DNA from: a virus
Lineage: Duplodnaviria; Caudoviricetes
Virus record (IMG/VR): IMGVR_UViG_3300037462_000914
Location: 1-37,256 of that record
Direction: 5' to 3' (one strand)
DNA: 37,256 bases
Shown: positions 4,641 through 28,374 of the stretch, piece by piece
Numbering within the stretch: position 1 is the stretch's first letter
Layout: every line of letters begins with the position of its first letter
Made by a program: the position numbers and the translations under genes
Notes under the pieces: generated by a model
The model's input: only the letters and a program-made list of their open reading frames with translations
The model's database searches: none
Told to the model about the DNA's origin: nothing

Positions 4641-4720
4641 TCAGTCGTCAGTCGTCAGTGGCCAGTGGTCAGTGTCGGCGGCTTTTTTTACTGACCACTA
4701 ACGACTGACCACTGACCACT
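4641..4720 (-). repeat. Inverted heptamer-array hairpin, AGTGGTC/AGTCGTC family
   Basis: (cagtcgt/cagtggt)n, loop tgtcggcggcttttttta, (ctgacca)n. Confidence 0.9.
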
Positions 4721-4724
4721 ATGT

Positions 4725-5219
4725 TTATGCCACTCTTATCTCGAACCGCTTGGTGGCCAGCCGGTATTGGTTGACCAAGGCGCGGACAATCTGCCGGTCG
4801 GTGGGCGGAACAGACGCAGGTACCTGCACGATGAAATCGTACAGGTTGCGGCCTTCGTTCACCCCGCTCAGGAACAGGCCCTCGGTGCCTTCGCTGGCGT
4901 TGTCGGCGTAGGTGTCGGGCTGCAGCTCCGGGCTGTTGAACAGGTAGGCCGCGTCAAGGCGCAGGCTGCTGTTCACGATGCGAATCAGCCCGCCGCCCGA
5001 CGGCACGCGCCGGTTCAGCAGGTTCTCCAGTATCTGCGTCTGGCCGTTCAGCTTGGCCTTGGCGTTGCTGTCGGCCCGGTAGGCCAAGAACACCGCGTGC
5101 GCCGTGGCGAACGGCACCAGCAGCACCCGCACCAACGCCAGCCACTTGGCTTTAATCAAATCAACCGGCGTAAACCGCAGGATGAGCTTGTTGAGGTCTA
5201 TCTGTACGATTCTCATCAC
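4725..5219 (-). CDS. Baseplate wedge protein (gp48/gpI-like)
   Basis: LNGQTQILENLLN...DFIVQVP...LVNQYRLATKRF; follows the baseplate J-like gene. Confidence 0.6.
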   Translation of the reverse strand: MMRIVQIDLNKLILRFTPVDLIKAKWLALVRVLLVPFATAHAVFLAYRADSNAKAKLNGQTQILENLLNRRVPSGGGLIRIVNSSLRLDAAYLFNSPELQPDTYADNASEGTEGLFLSGVNEGRNLYDFIVQVPASVPPTDRQIVRALVNQYRLATKRFEIRVA

Positions 5220-5221
5220 AA

Positions 5222-5301
5222 AGTCGTCAGTGGCCAGTGGTCGGTGGCCAGTGTTGGCGGCTGTTTTCTACTGACCACCGACGACTGACCACTGACCACT
5301 A
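5222..5301 (-). repeat. Inverted heptamer-array hairpin, AGTGGTC family
   Basis: Loop tgttggcggctgttttcta; TAG of the upstream gene is the first repeat unit. Confidence 0.9.
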
Positions 5302-6108
5302 AACCGGTATGAGCTGCAAGGTGTCCTCCAACGTGAACCCGGCGGCGGTTTCGGCCTCGATGTAGCCGGCCTTGGTTTCGTAGGTGCGGGTGAACGACTC
5401 GCTCACCAGCCCGCTCCACGCCTGCAGTTGCAGCACCTCCGCGTCGTCAAAGCCCTCCACGCGCTGCATCGCGTCAATCAGGCGTATGGTCTGCACCGTG
5501 CCGTCGAAGGGCAGGTTTTTCAAATAGTCTTTTATGGCCGCCACCAGCCGGGTGCGGAACTCGGTCAGTTCGTAGACGCCTTGGTAATACACCTTCAGGT
5601 AGGGCCGCAGCCGGTCGGCGTTCAGGCTGACGATTTCGATGTCGGTGCCGGCAAAGCGCAGCCGGTCGATGTAGCCGCCGAACTGCGCCAGTTCGTTGGG
5701 TGCCAGCGGCTGCAACGTGTCGGGCTGCGCACCGGCCTTGGCCACTTTCAAAAAGAGCTTCGAGCCGTCCTCCTTGTAGGCGGCTTGGGTCACGATGCGC
5801 TTGGCCGGGTCGATGATTGGGTAGGTCAGCACGCCGTCCACCTCGTAGAGCACGTCGCCGAACTGGAACTCGCGGGCCTTCTTGGCGTACCAGGCGGCGG
5901 TGGCCACCGGCGCGGTGTTGATCAGCCGCTCGGTTTCGGTGCGGTGCACGTCGAAAAAGGTTTCGTGTATCCAGTGGGCCACGGCCACCACATAGAACAG
6001 CAGCCCGTAGCGGGAGGTGAACGAGCCGTTGGCCAGCCCCGACAGTTGCGGGTCGGCGGCGGCCGCGTCAATCATCTGCTGTTTTATCTCAGCTATTGTC
6101 CGTGCCAT
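5299..6108 (-). CDS. Baseplate J-like (gp47) protein
   Basis: MARTIAEIKQQM...WYAKKAREFQFGD...AIKDYLKNLPFDG; synteny. Confidence 0.7.
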   Translation of the reverse strand: MARTIAEIKQQMIDAAAADPQLSGLANGSFTSRYGLLFYVVAVAHWIHETFFDVHRTETERLINTAPVATAAWYAKKAREFQFGDVLYEVDGVLTYPIIDPAKRIVTQAAYKEDGSKLFLKVAKAGAQPDTLQPLAPNELAQFGGYIDRLRFAGTDIEIVSLNADRLRPYLKVYYQGVYELTEFRTRLVAAIKDYLKNLPFDGTVQTIRLIDAMQRVEGFDDAEVLQLQAWSGLVSESFTRTYETKAGYIEAETAAGFTLEDTLQLIPV

Positions 6109-8254: not shown

Positions 8255-8335
8255 CAGTGGTCAGTGGTCGGTCGTCAGTGGTCAGTGACGGGCGGCTTTT
8301 TTTACTGACCACCGACCACTGACCACTGACGACTA
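8255..8335 (-). repeat. Inverted heptamer-array hairpin, AGTGGTC family
   Basis: Loop gacgggcggcttttttta. Confidence 0.9.
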
Positions 8336-8938
8336 TTTTATAAGCAGTTCCACCGGCGTGTCGCTGACGGCGCTGAACTCGTAGGCGAACACGTCCTCGT
8401 GGCCGGCCATGTCCGGGTAGCTCACGTCGGTGAGCAACAGGTTGTGAATATCGAACAGACGCAAGTACTCGCAAGCCACCTTGACCGACTGGTTCTTGCG
8501 GAACAGCTTCACCTGCTGGCGCAGCCCCTGCGCCGGAAAACGCCCGAACACCGCGTCGGGCTGGGCCGAAGGCGGGCTGATTACGTAGCCGGTTATCTTC
8601 ACAGCCCACGTGTCGAAGCCCACCACCTCGTTCACCGTGTTGTCGGCCCCGGCTATCTTGGTGGTCACCACGTGCTTGCGGCCGCTCACCTCCACGGTGG
8701 CTAGCGTCAGTTCCAGGCCGTCCAGTTCCAGGCGGCTCACCAGCACCCGGCGGTCGGGCACCGGCCCCCGGTTCATGGGCCTGCCCGCCTCAAAGCCCTT
8801 TTCGGTCTGGATGAACGGGTTGGGCAACGCCGTCAGCAGTTGGCGCACGTCGCCCAAGGCCGGCTCCAGCCCCACGGCCAGTTGCCCCGTCGCACGCTGG
8901 CGCAGGGCGTTCTCCAAGTTTATCGTGAAGTCGGCCAT
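8333..8938 (-). CDS. Tail tube initiator-like protein (DUF6046/gpU-like)
   Basis: KHVVTTKIAG..NTVNE...V.CEYLRLFDI...AVSD; follows the tape measure gene. Confidence 0.6.
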   Translation of the reverse strand: MADFTINLENALRQRATGQLAVGLEPALGDVRQLLTALPNPFIQTEKGFEAGRPMNRGPVPDRRVLVSRLELDGLELTLATVEVSGRKHVVTTKIAGADNTVNEVVGFDTWAVKITGYVISPPSAQPDAVFGRFPAQGLRQQVKLFRKNQSVKVACEYLRLFDIHNLLLTDVSYPDMAGHEDVFAYEFSAVSDTPVELLIK

Positions 8939-11379: not shown

Positions 11380-11478
11380 TAGTTGGTAGTTGGTTGTCGG
11401 TCGTCGGTGTCAGTCATTAGCCGTTAGCCAATAGCTATTAGCTAACGGCTGGCCACCGACGACTGACCACTGACGACT
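11380..11478 (-). repeat. Nested heptamer hairpin: AGTCGTC outer arms, TTAGCCG inner arms, AATAGCTATT core
   Basis: ...gtcagtcattagccgttagccaatagctattagctaacggctggccaccgacgactgacc... Confidence 0.85.
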
Positions 11479-11484
11479 TTCAAA

Positions 11485-11901
11485 TCAGATGTTGTATTCT
11501 ATGTCGCCGGCGTTGCCCTCGATGTCAATGGTGGCGTGCGGCTCGCCGGCCGTGTACTTCTTGTTGATCTTGGTGACCTTGAACTTCACTATGCGGTCGG
11601 TGCGCAGCCGGTTGAGCCGGTCGAGGCGGGCCACCTGTATGTTCACCGCCGCCATCGAGCGAAGGCTGGCGCCGGGCGGCAGCGAATCCTGCAGCGCGTC
11701 GTACTCGTCCACCAGCAGGGTCAGCTTCACCGGGAAGCGGCTCTTGCCGTTGATCACCGCGTAGGGTGCCCGCTGGCCCAAGATGTGCACCTCCGACGAC
11801 TCGCCTTCCTCGTCGTACTCGATGTCCACCACCGCCGCCGTCTTGTTGGCCACGATGATCTGGATGTTCTCGTGGCTGTAGGTGTTTCCGTTGATTGCCA
11901 T
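11485..11901 (-). CDS. Tail tube protein
   Basis: MAINGNTYSHENI...; 138 aa directly after the sheath. Confidence 0.75.
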   Translation of the reverse strand: MAINGNTYSHENIQIIVANKTAAVVDIEYDEEGESSEVHILGQRAPYAVINGKSRFPVKLTLLVDEYDALQDSLPPGASLRSMAAVNIQVARLDRLNRLRTDRIVKFKVTKINKKYTAGEPHATIDIEGNAGDIEYNI

Positions 11902-15774: not shown

Positions 15775-16182
15775 TTATCGCTGCACCGGCACCACTGTGC
15801 CGCCCACTTGGTTGGCGTAGTGCACCGCGTCGCTTTCGGTGAAGAAAGGCACCCGGTTCACGTCAACCACGTAGAACACCCCGACCTCCGGGTGCAACTC
15901 GAAGTACGGCTGCACCTCGGCCCGCCAGTCAACCGACTCGGCGATTTCATTCAAAAGCTCCAGCCCGGCTGCCGCCGCGTCGGCCGCCAGTTGCTCCAAG
16001 CCCAGACCTGGCTCAACCGGGGTTTGCTCAACCGGGGTTTGCTCAACCGGGGTTTGCTCAACCGGGGTTTGCTCAACCGGGGTTTGCTCAACCGGGGTTT
16101 GCTCAACCGGGGTTTGCTCAACCGGGGTTTGCTCAACCGGGGTTTGCGGCTCCTGCGGAGCCGTTTGCGATTTTTTCGCCAT
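15775..16182 (-). CDS. Hypothetical protein after capsid with (QTPVE)9 repeat
   Basis: 135-aa ORF downstream of the major capsid gene. Confidence 0.65.
   Translation of the reverse strand: MAKKSQTAPQEPQTPVEQTPVEQTPVEQTPVEQTPVEQTPVEQTPVEQTPVEQTPVEPGLGLEQLAADAAAAGLELLNEIAESVDWRAEVQPYFELHPEVGVFYVVDVNRVPFFTESDAVHYANQVGGTVVPVQR
16012..16146. repeat. 15-bp perfect tandem repeat x9 (coding VNTR)
   Basis: ctcaaccggggtttg x9. Confidence 0.97.
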
Positions 16183-16223
16183 GTCCTTATATAATAGGTG
16201 TACGAAACTTTTCCTAAAACCTC

Positions 16224-16278
16224 AATTCCGAATTCAGAATTCTGAATTCAGAATTCTGAATTCGGAATTCTGAATTCA
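16224..16278 (-). repeat. GAATTCA/GAATTCT heptamer array (self-complementary)
   Basis: aattccgaattcagaattctgaattcagaattctgaattcggaattctgaattca, right after the capsid stop. Confidence 0.85.
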
Positions 16279-17229
16279 TCAGGCCGCCGCCTGCTGCACC
16301 AGTGCCACGATGCCCTGGGCGTTGGCCCGGCGTTTGCGTCCGCCCATGCGCACCAGCGTCGAGTACACGTCGCCGTAGTAGAGCGGGCTGTCGGTATCCT
16401 CGAAGATGTCCACCGTGCCAAGGGCGGCTTCCACCGCGCTGCGGTGCCAACACACCACGGCCTCGTTGTCGGTGGCCGCACCGGCCGCGCCCACGGGCTT
16501 CACCACCGGCGTGCCGGCGTTGTCATAGACGGCCGTGCCGTTGCGCTCCATCAGGTTGAAGCCGAACAGCCGGGTGATCACCCCGTTGGTGATGTCCAGC
16601 TCGCGGCCGAAGTCGCGGGCAATCAAGTCCTTGTCGCTCATGAGCTGGTCGTACAAATCGCTGGGCAGCAGGGCGAACCGGTCGGTGCCGGGGCTGTTCT
16701 GCTTGTTCAAGGCCAGCTTGGCCCGCTTCAAGTCAAGGTAGCTGAACTTCTGGCGGTTGCCCGTGCCGCTCGGGGCGGTGGCGGCCACGCTCTCGGTGTT
16801 GGCGATGCGGATGACCGCAGCGGCGGCGATGGCCGCGCTGCCCGCACCGGCCGCAAACGCGCTGAGCCAGTTGAAGATGATGTCCTCGCCGCACGCCTCG
16901 GCGATGGTGGCCAAGTGTTCGCCCAGCACGCTGTCCATCTTGTCGTAGGACAGTTCCACCGTTTCGGCGTTCTGGATGTGGGTCGGGTCGGTGCTGTACT
17001 CGTCGATCACGTACACGATGTCCGTGTCGGTGCGGCGCACGGCCACGGCCGGGAAGCTGCCCCGGTTGCGCACCACCGTGGGGCGGGCACCCGCCTGCGG
17101 GATGTGCACGATCTTGCCGCCCAGCACGTTCTCATCCACCCGCGTGCAGTTGGCCGGGTTCAGGTGGGGGTTGTCCTTGAACAGGTTCCCCATGATGTAG
17201 TTGACCCAAAGTTCTTTCTGGATTGCCAT
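16279..17229 (-). CDS. Major capsid protein
   Basis: MAIQKELW...KIVHIPQAG...ELSYDKMDSV...PLYYGDVYS; follows protease/scaffold. Confidence 0.85.
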   Translation of the reverse strand: MAIQKELWVNYIMGNLFKDNPHLNPANCTRVDENVLGGKIVHIPQAGARPTVVRNRGSFPAVAVRRTDTDIVYVIDEYSTDPTHIQNAETVELSYDKMDSVLGEHLATIAEACGEDIIFNWLSAFAAGAGSAAIAAAAVIRIANTESVAATAPSGTGNRQKFSYLDLKRAKLALNKQNSPGTDRFALLPSDLYDQLMSDKDLIARDFGRELDITNGVITRLFGFNLMERNGTAVYDNAGTPVVKPVGAAGAATDNEAVVCWHRSAVEAALGTVDIFEDTDSPLYYGDVYSTLVRMGGRKRRANAQGIVALVQQAAA

Positions 17230-22974: not shown

Positions 22975-23397
22975 ATGACATTCCTCGAAACGCCCGACTT
23001 CACCAAGCAGATCAAAACCGACGTGCTCGAACGCATCATCCAGCAGGATTACGCCGTGCTGGCCGATGCCGAACTGTCGGCCATATCCGAGATGCAGAGC
23101 TACCTCGGCGTGCGGCTCGACGTTGCGCAGATTTTTGCCCAAAACGGCCCGGCCCGCCATCCGCTGGTGGTCATGTTCTGCGTGGACATCCTGCTGTACC
23201 ACATCCACAGCAGGCTCAACCCCAACCAGATTCCGCAACTTCGCATCGACCGCTACGAGGCGGCCGTCGCCTGGTGCAGGCAGGCCGGGGCCGGCACGCT
23301 CTACACCGACCTGCCGCCCAAGCCCGAAACCGAAACACCCGCCGCCGCCGGCAACATCATTTACAGCGGCCCGGCCAAACGGAACAACGAATTTTAA
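22975..23397 (+). CDS. Head-tail connector, Mu gp36/DUF1320-like
   Basis: AISEMQSYL...FCVDILLYHIH...RIDRYEAAVAW. Confidence 0.8.
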   Translation: MTFLETPDFTKQIKTDVLERIIQQDYAVLADAELSAISEMQSYLGVRLDVAQIFAQNGPARHPLVVMFCVDILLYHIHSRLNPNQIPQLRIDRYEAAVAWCRQAGAGTLYTDLPPKPETETPAAAGNIIYSGPAKRNNEF

Positions 23398-23399
23398 CT

Positions 23400-23491
23400 T
23401 CAGTGGCCAGTGGTCAGTCGTCAGTGGTCGGTGGTCAGTAGAAAACAACCGCCGACACTGACCACCGACCACTGACGACTGACCACTGACT
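23400..23491 (+). repeat. Inverted heptamer-array hairpin, AGTGGTC family
   Basis: Loop tagaaaacaaccgccgaca, the reverse orientation of the copies in minus-strand operons. Confidence 0.9.
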
Positions 23492-23492
23492 T

Positions 23493-25514
23493 ATGGCTAA
23501 AAAGACAACCGCCCCCGAAACCCTGGTCATCAACCAGATCAGGCTCATCCAACTGCAACGGCAAAAGGCCGAGATCGACCGCTGGCGCAACGCCCTGCGC
23601 AGCGCCGAGTCGGTGACCAACCCGCTGCGCCGCCCGCTGCTGGAGCTGTACCGCGAGCTGATGCTGGACGCGCACCTGTACGCCATCGTCGACAAACGCA
23701 TCCGGGCCGTCACCCGCCGCCGCTTCAGCTACGTCGAAGACGACGTTGACACCTCGGAAATCAACCGCATGTTCGCCAGCCCGTGGTTCTCGGACGTGGT
23801 CTGGTACGCGATGGAAGCCCTGTTCTGGGGCTTTTCGCTGGTGGAGCTGCACTTGGACAAGGGCATGGTGGCCAAGGCCGTGCCGGTGCCGCGCCAGCAC
23901 GTGCGGCCCGAGTTGGGCATCGTGGTGCTGGCCAACGCCAGCGAAACCGCCGGCATCGAATACCGCAAGCCGCCCTACGACACGCGGGTGCTGGAGGTGT
24001 GGCTGGAGGACGAACTGGGGCTTTTGAACATCGCCGCCGCCAACGTGATCTACAAACGCGGCGGAACCACCGACTACGCCAACTTCATCGAGATGTTCGG
24101 CTCGCCCATCCGCCAGTACGAGTACGACCCCAACGTGCCCGGCGCACGGGAGGAAACCCAAAAGGTGGCCGACGAGTCGGGCAACAGTGCCGCCATCGTC
24201 ACGCCCCGCGACTGGACGACCCTGACGCTGCACCAGGTCAACAACTCGGTCGGGGCCAGCGTGCACAGCACTTTCCTGGCCGACCTGAAGGAGGAACTGT
24301 CGGTGCTGGTGCTGGGCAACACCATGACCACCGAGGACGGCTCCAGCCTGAGCCAGGCCAAGGTGCACCAGGACGAGCAGACGGCCATGACCCAGGACGA
24401 TGTGCGGTTTGTGGAGGACGTGCTGAATTTTCACCTGAAGCCCAAGCTGGAGGCGTTGGGCTACCCGGTGGCCAAGGGGCGTTTCCAAGCCGACCAAACC
24501 GACACCACGCCCATCGAGGTGAAGCTGGACATGGATTTGAAGATGAAGGCGGCGGGCATCCCGATTGACGACGACTATTTCTACGACAAATACAAGATTC
24601 CCAAGCCGACAGGGGCGGGGCGCAAGGCTGCCGCGCCTGAAAAAAAAAAGCCTGAACCGGCCCAGTCGCTCCTGACTTTCCACGCCGCCGACTGCACCTG
24701 CGGCGGGCTGCCCACGGATCTGGCCCTGCCCACGGGTTTGTTCAAATCCATATTGAAGGTGTTTCGCCGCGTGTTCGACAAGCAGTTGAAGGCGGGCGAC
24801 ATTGACGAACAAACGTTCACCGACACCTACCAGGCGCTGGTGGACGGCATCGGGACCGGCTACGGCGACATCCGGCCCGACTACGAAACGCCCGACACCC
24901 AGATGCTGGCCCGGCTCCAAGAGCAGACGGGCGTGTTCGCCGCCCACAAGAACGCCGCCTTTGTGAAAGCATTGGCCGAGGCGTTGACCGGTGCCGACGG
25001 CAAGCTGGTGGAGTGGAACGATTTTCGCAAAATTGCCCGAAACATCCACGCCGACTACAACGTGAACTGGCTGCGCACCGAGTACAACCAGGCCGTAGCA
25101 TCGGCGCAGATGGCCAGCCGGTGGGTGGAGATCGAGGCCGCCAAGGCCGATTTTCCGAACCTGAAATACAGCACCGTGGGCGACGCCAACGTGCGGCCCG
25201 CCCACGCCAAGCTCGACGGCGTGGTGCGCCCGGTGGACGATGCGTTCTGGGACGCGGCATACCCGCCGTCCGCATGGTCTTGCCGGTGCACCGTGCAGCA
25301 ACTCGACGACACGGCCGACATCACGCCCGAAAGCCGCTACCGCAGCGTGCTCAGCGGCCCCGACTGGGACAAGCGTTTCAACGGGAACGTGGGCAAAACC
25401 GGCAAGCCCTTCGGCGAAGACTACGAGTACTACCTCTCGCTTACCCCGGAGCAGCGCAAAGCCGCCGAGCAAAAAGCGAAAGAGATATTGGAGAAAGACA
25501 ATGGCAACGACTGA
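23493..25514 (+). CDS. Portal (gp29/DUF935-like) fused to MuF/gp30 head morphogenesis domain
   Basis: N-terminal LMLDAHL...FIEMFGSP...LVLGNTMTTEDGSS.SQAKVH; C-terminal LRTEYNQA...VGDANVRPAH...YPPSAWSCRCTV. Confidence 0.88.
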   Translation: MAKKTTAPETLVINQIRLIQLQRQKAEIDRWRNALRSAESVTNPLRRPLLELYRELMLDAHLYAIVDKRIRAVTRRRFSYVEDDVDTSEINRMFASPWFSDVVWYAMEALFWGFSLVELHLDKGMVAKAVPVPRQHVRPELGIVVLANASETAGIEYRKPPYDTRVLEVWLEDELGLLNIAAANVIYKRGGTTDYANFIEMFGSPIRQYEYDPNVPGAREETQKVADESGNSAAIVTPRDWTTLTLHQVNNSVGASVHSTFLADLKEELSVLVLGNTMTTEDGSSLSQAKVHQDEQTAMTQDDVRFVEDVLNFHLKPKLEALGYPVAKGRFQADQTDTTPIEVKLDMDLKMKAAGIPIDDDYFYDKYKIPKPTGAGRKAAAPEKKKPEPAQSLLTFHAADCTCGGLPTDLALPTGLFKSILKVFRRVFDKQLKAGDIDEQTFTDTYQALVDGIGTGYGDIRPDYETPDTQMLARLQEQTGVFAAHKNAAFVKALAEALTGADGKLVEWNDFRKIARNIHADYNVNWLRTEYNQAVASAQMASRWVEIEAAKADFPNLKYSTVGDANVRPAHAKLDGVVRPVDDAFWDAAYPPSAWSCRCTVQQLDDTADITPESRYRSVLSGPDWDKRFNGNVGKTGKPFGEDYEYYLSLTPEQRKAAEQKAKEILEKDNGND

Positions 25515-26670: not shown

Positions 26671-26865
26671 CTATTCCGGCTGCAGGTGCTCGATCAGCAC
26701 CAGCGTGTCGTGTATCTCGATGCGCAGGCTGGCGAACTCCTCCGGCTCCAGGGCGCAGACGGCCTTCAGGATGGCCATCAGCCCGGTGCGGTACTGATTC
26801 AGCTCCTCGCACGGCGAAGGGTGCTCGATGCGCACCTCAATCGCCCGGTCGGTGCAGCGGGTCAT
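26671..26865 (-). CDS. Small hypothetical protein coupled to rha
   Basis: ATGA overlap with the rha stop; 64 aa. Confidence 0.6.
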   Translation of the reverse strand: MTRCTDRAIEVRIEHPSPCEELNQYRTGLMAILKAVCALEPEEFASLRIEIHDTLVLIEHLQPE

Positions 26866-27371
26866 CGGCCACCTCCTTCCGCGAACAAGTCCAGCACGGC
26901 CATCATCTTGCGGTACACCCGCCGCTGGCGGCGGCTCACCCGCTGGTCGCTCAGGGCAATGGCAGTGATTTCGCGCCGCAAACCGGCCACGTCCACCCGC
27001 CCCGGCAAAGGCATCCGGTACTGGCCGGTGTAGTCCACAGGCGTTTGCTTGCGCAACTTGGCCTCCATTTCGTTGAAAGCCGCAATATAATCCTCTTTGA
27101 ACTTCATGGCGTTTTCGCCGGTGAAGCCCATCACCAGCAAAGTGAAACCGTCGCGGGTGATGACGTACTGCTTCTGCTCGCGTCCCCAAAAGTCCCGATA
27201 AGAGGTCGGCTCAAAATTGAGCCGACCAAATTCCTCGCTGCAACCAAGGTTTTCAATGTCGCGAAGTACATTCTTGTGTTCTTTGCCGAAGTACTCGGCA
27301 ATCAGACGGGAACTGGTCAGGGTTTTGCCACCCTGCGCAAACACTAATTCTTTCATGGGAATTTTAGACAT
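26862..27371 (-). CDS. rha: Rha family phage regulatory protein
   Basis: TSSRLIAEYFGKEHKNVLRDIE...LNF..SY...YVITRDGFTLLVMGFTGENAMKFKEDYIAAFNEME. Confidence 0.92.
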   Translation of the reverse strand: MSKIPMKELVFAQGGKTLTSSRLIAEYFGKEHKNVLRDIENLGCSEEFGRLNFEPTSYRDFWGREQKQYVITRDGFTLLVMGFTGENAMKFKEDYIAAFNEMEAKLRKQTPVDYTGQYRMPLPGRVDVAGLRREITAIALSDQRVSRRQRRVYRKMMAVLDLFAEGGGR

Positions 27372-27385
27372 TAAAGTTCAGGGCA

Positions 27386-27481
27386 ACAAAAAAGCGGTGT
27401 CGCCCTTCCCGCTGTCTGAGCTTCCCGTGGCAAGCTCCCATACCCCATTACAAGGTATGGACGGGGGTGCGACACCGCTAT
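27386..27481 (-). ncRNA. Putative c4-like multi-stem antisense/attenuator RNA in the rha leader
   Basis: Outer stem agcggtgtcgc (27393-27403)/gcgacaccgct (27469-27479), two internal hairpins, a U-tract after it, and complementarity to flanking sites. Confidence 0.6.
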
Positions 27482-27574
27482 TTCCATATGGAATAGAAGT
27501 ATCAAGGCACAAAAATAGCCCCTGCAAGCAAACGTTGTGGGGGCTTTCGCTCCCACGAGAATTTCAGACAGGGG

Positions 27575-27582
27575 CAAAGATA
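27575..27582 (-). promoter_or_regulatory. Bacteroidota-type -7 promoter element TATCTTTG for the rha operon
   Basis: TAnnTTTG match, with TTG about 21 nt upstream. Confidence 0.6.
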
Positions 27583-27817
27583 CGAAAACTACGCAATCAA
27601 AGTCAAGGGGCATGTAAGATTTCGCCGCTCGAAAGCACCCTCTTGCTTGATAACAAACCGAGTATCACCGTTGTCCGGGAAGTGGTGATTTTTACGGTAA
27701 CTTCTACTTGATGCCTCCAAAAGAGTTTTTCTCAAAAATGAGAAGAACCTTAACCCCCTGAGTATCACCGAATCCGTTTTTACGGAAACCTTTTTTTTCT
27801 TTTACTCAAAAAAGAGT

Positions 27818-27863
27818 AAAAGTCCCGGTAGGAGGTCTCCTGAAAATTCAGGAGACCGAATTC
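27818..27863 (-). pseudogene. 46-nt orphan fragment of an rha allele
   Basis: Encodes EFGLLNFQETSYRDF versus EFGRLNFEPTSYRDF in rha; 37/46 nt identical to 27188-27233. Confidence 0.8.
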
Positions 27864-27870
27864 ATGTAAG

Positions 27871-28374
27871 CTATTTTTGTTGGTAATTGGGCTTGCGGCA
27901 CCAAATACTGACCTCGTAAGACTCCTTGAATCCGTTGTCGCTCTTTTCGGTGATAAGGATGAGCCGGTAACCTTTCGCCGGATTGTCGTACACGGCCCGC
28001 TCAACACCCGGCTTTGTTTCCTTTTTCTCAACAAAGGCGTGGGATTTGGCTATTTCGGCTTCGTACTCCTCCGGCTTGTATTCATAGGTAGGCTCAATCC
28101 TGATGGCGACCACCTTGCCGTTTTTGAAAAAATAAACGTAGTTCACCGAACCCGTCGGAACCCAGCGGTAATAATGGGTGAAAGAAGTGTCTCGTCCGCC
28201 GTAGTTTTCTTTTAGATTGTAGTCGGCCCAGTCGCCGGTCGTTTCAAGCCACGCGGCAAACTCTTTGCCTGTAATGCTCATGCGCACATTGTCAGGGTTG
28301 AAAATCGGACGCTTTTCTGTTTGAGCAAACGCCGTGGCAGACAATAATCCAATCAACAGGAGCAACCTTTTCAT
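27871..28374 (-). CDS. Secreted hypothetical protein (moron-like, lower GC)
   Basis: Signal peptide MKRLLLLIGLLSATAFA|Q; AT-richer codons than the core phage genes. Confidence 0.75.
   Translation of the reverse strand: MKRLLLLIGLLSATAFAQTEKRPIFNPDNVRMSITGKEFAAWLETTGDWADYNLKENYGGRDTSFTHYYRWVPTGSVNYVYFFKNGKVVAIRIEPTYEYKPEEYEAEIAKSHAFVEKKETKPGVERAVYDNPAKGYRLILITEKSDNGFKESYEVSIWCRKPNYQQK

Follow-up and report, generated by a model that had tools for sequence, protein, structure and literature searches.

Rha proteins of phages probably read a palindrome within their own gene, and an orphan palindrome beside one rha gene likely belongs to a foreign Rha

Why would a phage regulatory gene contain a perfect palindrome, and why would a short piece of a related gene with a different palindrome lie close to it? 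The question arises at the rha locus of the window, which is the whole stretch of 37,256 nucleotides of viral DNA analysed here. A Pfam scan identifies the window as a Mu-like phage or prophage, based on Portal_Mu, a Mu-like protease, Gp36, a DUF2586 sheath and an AAA ATPase. The nearest isolated relatives of the sheath are phages infecting Flavobacterium and Winogradskyella, from which the host is probably a member of the Bacteroidota. The rha gene sits within a lower-GC stretch, and its product is assigned to the Rha family by profile search (PF09669; E 1.4e-33, 115.8 bits against a curated cut-off of 29.9); an alternative in-frame ATG at 27371 would add 5 aa. Genes of this family are very common in temperate phages, with 1,090 of 50,697 phage records matching rha, and usually carry the label 'antirepressor' or 'regulator'. 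A literature search of mainly openly accessible papers found no description of a Rha target or binding site. Elsewhere in the window, a single ORF at 23493-25514 (+) fuses Mu-type portal and head-morphogenesis (gpF) domains, a 15-nt tandem array occupies 15981-16177, and numerous inverted repeat blocks built on heptamers (ACTGACC- and ATTCTGA-type) lie between genes, for example at 4641-4735, 5222-5315, 8256-8349, 11399-11493, 16204-16279 and 23395-23502. The features at the centre of the question are the following.

26862..27356, minus strand: rha, 164 aa from the ATG at 27356, PF09669
27204..27227, no strand assigned: in-gene palindrome, coding-strand core GCTC-AATTTT-GAGC, which fits the code for HKNVLR
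27252..27278, minus strand: predicted recognition helix codons, HKNVLRDIE, residues 27-35 (AlphaFold2 model and covariation)
27818..27863, minus strand: orphan 46-nt fragment, very probably of a sister rha, with a palindrome at 27834-27857, core CCTG
27871..28374, minus strand: upstream gene, probable exported protein, no Pfam family, stop codon 7 nt before the orphan

The gene (27188-27233) and the orphan (27818-27863) align without gaps at an offset of 630, with 37 of 46 positions identical, and the homology ends abruptly at both sides. The orphan reads EFGLLNFQETSYRDF and its in-gene counterpart EFGRLNFEPTSYRDF. Both 24-mers (27204-27227 and 27834-27857) have perfect 11-bp arms flanking AA, so that the alignment confirms the initial annotation in its description of paired perfect inverted repeats, 630 bp apart and in the same orientation. 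Of the nine differences, six make up compensatory pairs at half-site positions 3, 6 and 7, counted from the centre; the other three fall outside the stem and are silent in the rha frame. Both sets are as had been described. On this basis the orphan had been proposed to be a silent alternative cassette for diversification of the protein, with a binding site covarying with the protein as a secondary idea, and the proposal had been made to depend on palindromy in rha homologues.

Palindromy at this site is a property of the whole family. The gene set comprises 266 distinct rha genes, of which 248 pass a palindrome filter and 143 are non-redundant at <90% identity; 18 genes with a weak palindrome or a non-His helix were removed before counting, and the sampling is biased by the search motifs GKEHKNVL and CTN-AAT-TTT-NAG. 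The in-gene palindrome is found across the 143 genes, with compensated changes in viral and genomic relatives and with 18 different symmetric cores. Pairing between the arms is 0.94, 0.96, 0.90, 0.99, 0.99 and 0.97 at positions 1-6 from the centre, and 0.48, 0.57, 0.88, 0.76 and 0.66 at positions 7-11.

The bases of the palindrome follow the residues of a helix encoded ∼18 codons upstream, the reader codons and the site being ∼60 nt apart. Mutual information between helix residues and the 5' arm is highest for three combinations, H+1/position 6, H+2/position 4 and H+5/position 3, where H is an invariant histidine. Among the 143 genes, H+1 (K28 in the window Rha) pairs with position 6 as K→G in 105/105 and D→C in 21/21; H+2 (N29) pairs with position 4 as N→T in 108/109, D→G in 15/15, H→C in 6/6 and R→A in 6/6; and H+5 (R32) pairs with position 3 as R→C in 84/85, Q→G in 16/23 and A→G in 8/15. 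Both arms fit the helix in 131/132 genes at H+1 and 135/136 at H+2, and in only 114/137 at H+5. The code agrees with the textbook preferences of Lys/Arg for G, Asp for C and Asn for A on the appropriate strand. The suggestion that the palindrome covaries with residues of its own protein thus stands as to covariation; the residues concerned are mainly H+1, H+2 and H+5 of the helix, not those encoded by the palindrome itself.

Since the palindrome is also coding sequence, covariation could in principle reflect the protein. At fourfold-degenerate codon positions, position 6 is G in 63/63 K/R genes (background 635/3114, 20%) and C in 22/22 D/Y genes (285/801, 36%), and position 3 is C in 89/93 R/K genes (907/3121, 29%) and G in 17/27 Q/A genes (195/1001, 19%). 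The persistence of the rule at silent positions means that contacts within the protein cannot account for it. The code also persists where the dyad is read in other frames or in the opposite orientation (AENSA, AEFSA, SDLS), which places the constraint on the DNA.

The code extends to genes outside the set used to derive it. Among 15 held-out GenBank phage genes, <90% identical to the training genes, at least one arm fits at the three positions in 12/14, 13/13 and 12/12, and both arms fit in 9, 12 and 11 genes; L399 was left out of this set at 93% identity, and L410 was counted despite a mis-picked centre. The Rha of phi80 fits at all three positions and that of P22 on one full arm. Of 560 close pairs of genes (≥85% identical outside helix and site), which are not independent of each other, 496 share helix and core, 34 differ in helix and both arms, 30 share the helix with one arm changed, and none falls in a discordant class. 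Tree-corrected pairs go the predicted way in 4/4, 4/4 and about 5/6 cases, a comparison that is underpowered and not significant at any position. Exceptions are HKRVLQ genes, which carry C, not G; L404, which violates K→G; and L147, which has an orphan-type core despite Arg at H+5.

Structural modeling is consistent with a DNA-reading role for this helix. The single-sequence fold of the window Rha reaches a pLDDT of 42.5, and the AlphaFold2 model from a 110-row alignment (mean pLDDT 90.7) was used instead. It contains helices at residues 16-23 and 27-35 and a beta hairpin at 48-66, and His27, the sole invariant residue among the 110 sequences, begins the second helix. The N-terminal domain is accordingly predicted to be a homodimer-forming helix-turn-helix with a beta wing. 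The homodimer prediction scores 0.80 against 0.00 for the best control, with contact agreement of at least 96% between runs and partner pLDDT of at least 86; the mark used was attained by 20/30 solved pairs and 1/23 single chains. The listed dimer interface excludes residues 27-35, the recognition helix. The best DNA-bound fold match is pSK1 Par (8csh; Z 5.3, rmsd 2.7, 53 residues), followed by Mbp1 (Z 4.3) and RacA (Z 4.0), all within a middling, inconclusive range of Z. A Foldseek search gave nothing at E ≤ 0.001, and a PDB sequence search gave no solved relative of Rha. Palindromes also occur in frame after the helices of Bro-N-like domains, at about 2300-2330 in L115 and about 1405-1430 in L396.

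As the bases track the helix residues across relatives, the in-gene palindrome is very probably the DNA site of its own Rha, a reading drawn from covariation in sequence. The silent positions, the close pairs and the held-out genes together lend support to what had been the secondary idea. Alternatively, selection could favour a hairpin in the mRNA or a cruciform in the DNA, with the symmetry maintained by template switching, which can alter both arms at once. Pairing that reaches positions 9-11 (0.88, 0.76, 0.66), beyond what the helix explains, fits such a structure, but these outer positions covary with wing residues H+28 to H+34 in an analysis without tree correction. Coding-strand A·C mismatches outnumber G·T mismatches (62 vs 30), which argues against an mRNA hairpin; pairing drops at positions 7-8, the site is found in both orientations, and structure alone leaves the residue-specific bases unexplained. 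We hold this alternative to be improbable.

The identity of the orphan follows from the same code. Its central 20-mer has three matches among viral sequences, all in frame inside intact rha genes, of which two encode the helix HDNVLQ and one HDHLLR; the window Rha carries HKNVLR. Of the three positions covered by the code, two, 3 and 6, carry other bases in the orphan than in the in-gene site, and the orphan is therefore predicted not to be a site of the window Rha. In its outer arms and in the SYRDF flank the orphan agrees with the window rha, which suggests that it came from a close sister gene with a different helix. We assign the orphan with high confidence to a sister gene, as a non-cognate fragment, and its palindrome is likely the site of a foreign Rha of the H-D-N-x-x-Q type, judged by the code.

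If the orphan were instead a silent donor copied into rha by gene conversion, its orientation, its in-frame homology of ∼11 nt per side and the presence of its allele in intact genes would be as expected. The fragment lacks the helix codons, however, and copying it into the gene would uncouple the site from its reader. No close pair (0/560) has both arms changed under an unchanged helix, and the both-arm agreement at H+1 (131/132) and H+2 (135/136) also speaks against such events. Contigs from four runs of two studies, two of these runs possibly being the source of the window, contain no variant letters or joint, although contigs drop rare variants, and no reverse transcriptase or recombinase family was detected by Pfam in the 36 ORFs scanned of 226 listed. 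With the helix codons missing and no swapped pairs, the cassette proposal of the initial annotation finds no support, and we give it almost no credence.

Between rha and the orphan lie several further elements.

27372..27574, minus strand: structured leader before rha, fold z -5.8
27575..27582, minus strand: putative rha promoter box TATCTTTG, proposed from its position only
27730..27743, no strand assigned: non-self palindrome, core TCTC, T at position 6
27773..27786, no strand assigned: non-self palindrome, core TCCG, weakest among the four, no matching Rha known
27799..27822, no strand assigned: non-self palindrome, core ACTC (27804-27817), 9-bp arms, overlapping the orphan end by 5 nt

The leader holds complementary elements TGTCTGA, TCAGACA and TGTCTAA, spotted by eye, that resemble those of C4/CI antisense RNAs, in which a short element is complementary to upstream and gene-start targets. 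An Rfam search of the leader gave three hits at E 0.5-1, none of them C4. In the gut phage contig L396 (about 1130-1250), a Bro-N-like gene follows a comparable leader whose stems differ by compensated changes; the two leaders may represent a Bacteroidota counterpart of C4/CI antisense RNA that has yet to be catalogued. The box TATCTTTG matches the Bacteroidota -7 promoter consensus and is likely the rha promoter by its position; motifs of this type are not enriched window-wide (7 seen vs 7.8 expected). Terminator-like hairpins at 27517-27548 in the window and at about 114-150 in L412 share a 12-mer loop sequence, GCAAACGTTGTG, in opposite orientations, both in Bacteroidota rha regions.

The three additional palindromes, at 27730, 27773 and 27804, had been overlooked by the initial annotation. 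Over 20 shuffles, the 37-kb window yields on average 0.35 sites of the strict Rha shape (xCxx, six A/T, xxGx); the window itself has five. Three of these palindromes lie within 227 nt next to the orphan, which is not counted, and none of 20,000 local shuffles contained as many as two. With the orphan's included, four non-self Rha-shaped palindromes cluster at 27730-27852, and the window contains no others outside rha. Related units at 27660-27702 and 27761-27790, the latter including the TCCG palindrome, share GAGTATCACCG and TTTTTACGG. As for matching readers, ACTC is the 5' half-site in 4/143 rha genes; a targeted viral search for rha sites with T at position 6 gave 42 hits, none of them within a rha gene. 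The two T-type sites may belong to another protein family.

Extra sites near rha are enriched more generally. A scan of the 143 loci found 13 non-self extra sites against 3.6 expected and two self-type extra sites against 0.4 expected; own-type extras being enriched too, extra sites near rha are not specifically foreign. An apparent avoidance of own-type extra sites, none with a strict all-A/T centre, was dropped since two occur with a relaxed centre. Conservation of the patch was sought in relatives. Viral contigs gave no match to the gene/orphan flank pattern or to the leader 26-mer, the neighbouring gene as query gave only two weak matches, and the leader pattern occurs in 0/301 genomes of one Bacteroidota class; no close relative of the window prophage was found among these viral contigs and genomes by which to judge the conservation of the patch.

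The expectation that orphan copies would lie near other rha genes is borne out in that such fragments exist, but they are rare. When 251 non-redundant loci were screened by blast, 12 hits reached a score of 20 or higher, against 0-1 in shuffles, and intergenic rha fragments were present in four loci, the window, L119, L231 and L299, the last with two fragments; a further one, in L412, was located separately. In L119, L231, L299 and L412 the fragment cores are non-self relative to the linked gene, with the exception of one arm of the second L299 fragment. Several candidates were rejected as orphans: L290 and L262 are truncated rha genes; the extra sequences in L110, L023, L115 and L317 lie within open frames; and L298 is probably a chance match. 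A search for a combined gene and fragment pattern gave 132 matches, 83 of them distinct, which comprise 79 full genes, one contig end, one truncated gene, one probable chance match and one orphan, in L235. There, at about 1450-1670, a rha fragment whose palindrome is perfect has been joined, across a short stretch that the two have in common, to a second copy of the 3' end of an endolysin gene, which has diverged silently; no rha lies within 1.5 kb. The two fragments of L299 (910-1020) form an in-frame fusion that runs opposite to rha and lies between a pair of convergent stop codons. In L055, homologous units with different A/T-centred palindromes (1955-1995 and 2340-2380) flank a KilA-N-like remnant upstream of rha.

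What remains to be weighed is whether the foreign sites were kept or merely left behind. In the reading we favour, with confidence somewhat above even, the palindrome of rha is the own site of its protein, and the orphan with its neighbours is kept as a docking patch for foreign Rha proteins. The predicted reader of the in-gene dyad is a Rha dimer that uses three residues of its helix, and binding there may damp transcription of rha or tag the phage's own genome; reader and address would travel together in rha. The orphan would be the captured address of a foreign Rha of the HDNVLQ type and, with the three neighbouring palindromes, would form the patch. Since the patch lies between the upstream gene's stop codon and the likely rha promoter, a bound protein could alter read-through or promoter use. 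Selection would then retain the foreign sites as a sensor or decoy, not as leftovers; that the foreign sites in the window have a function at all we put at an even chance.

Own-site reading is equally retained if the orphan is a neutral relic of a replaced rha module of other specificity, of which a site-centred piece survived because illegitimate joins fall at protein-bound or hairpin-prone DNA. The settings of the fragments accord with this: they lie at module junctions, by stop codons or terminators, in the window, L119, L235, L299 and L412; the L235 fragment is joined to the duplicated endolysin end at a short shared sequence; and the window orphan overlaps the next palindrome by 5 nt. Fragments are also rare (4/251 loci), and own and foreign extra sites are enriched alike. 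A relic would nevertheless require several independent retentions to give four palindromes in 123 bp and none elsewhere outside rha, and both the orphan and the fragment in L235 have 11-bp arms without a mismatch, where most in-gene copies are imperfect (pairing of 0.48-0.57 at positions 7-8). We regard the relic as possible, if on the unlikely side.

Comparison with known systems helps to place the favoured reading of a self-addressed Rha with a foreign docking patch. Binding of a phage protein within its own gene is already on record for Roi of HK022, as Clerget and Boccard reportedly described in 1996; that case is said to concern one protein and one site, without a family-wide palindrome, a code or captured foreign sites. 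Roi is a weak match to the Rha profile (E 0.005), and roi contains a short palindrome, CTGCA-T-TGCAG, after its helix codons. By the same standards, rha keeps its dyad at the DNA level regardless of the encoded peptide, as the silent positions and the alternative frames show, and the site tracks the DNA-reading residues, with tree-corrected pairs concordant but underpowered. The rha genes of phi80 and P22 have the same in-gene site as the window rha, and the phi80 annotation states that Rha inhibits DNA synthesis in IHF-negative hosts.

The LacI/GalR and the 434 and P22 repressors recognise a dyad whose centre is A/T-rich and whose bases depend on a handful of helix positions. The Rha code resembles theirs in its K/R-G, D-C and N-A pairings. 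Their operators lie at promoters, whereas the Rha site is protein-coding DNA ∼60 nt from the reader codons. The best DNA-binding fold matches of Rha, all of middling score, are of the MerR-like/KilA-N winged-helix kind (pSK1 Par 8csh, RacA, Mbp1). With diversity-generating retroelements and silent-cassette conversion the locus shares a short homologous copy near the gene. Unlike the products of a diversity-generating retroelement, the changes are paired (G/T, G/C, C/G) with silent transitions and are not confined to adenines, and unlike in silent-cassette conversion no cassette-only swapped genes exist among the close pairs (0/560).

The openly accessible papers that made up most of the literature searched describe neither a palindrome in rha nor a residue-to-base code, and against that literature the three-residue code and the orphan as a non-cognate site appear to be new. 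The code turns every rha sequence, those of phi80 and P22 included, into a specific prediction of a binding site, and, with 18 symmetric cores among 143 genes, the family offers a natural collection of dimeric DNA binders that are likely orthogonal. The orphan, too, takes on another meaning, shifting from a spare part of rha to a likely address for the protein of another phage. A more tentative and rather doubtful extension is that Rha proteins are self-addressed modules, and that phages gather the addresses of rival Rha proteins in short arrays ahead of their own rha cassette in order to sense, soak up or borrow the regulator. The four-site patch of the window would then be a 'key ring' of foreign Rha addresses, and if such addresses are collected on purpose, this would, if true, be a new form of cross-talk between phages.
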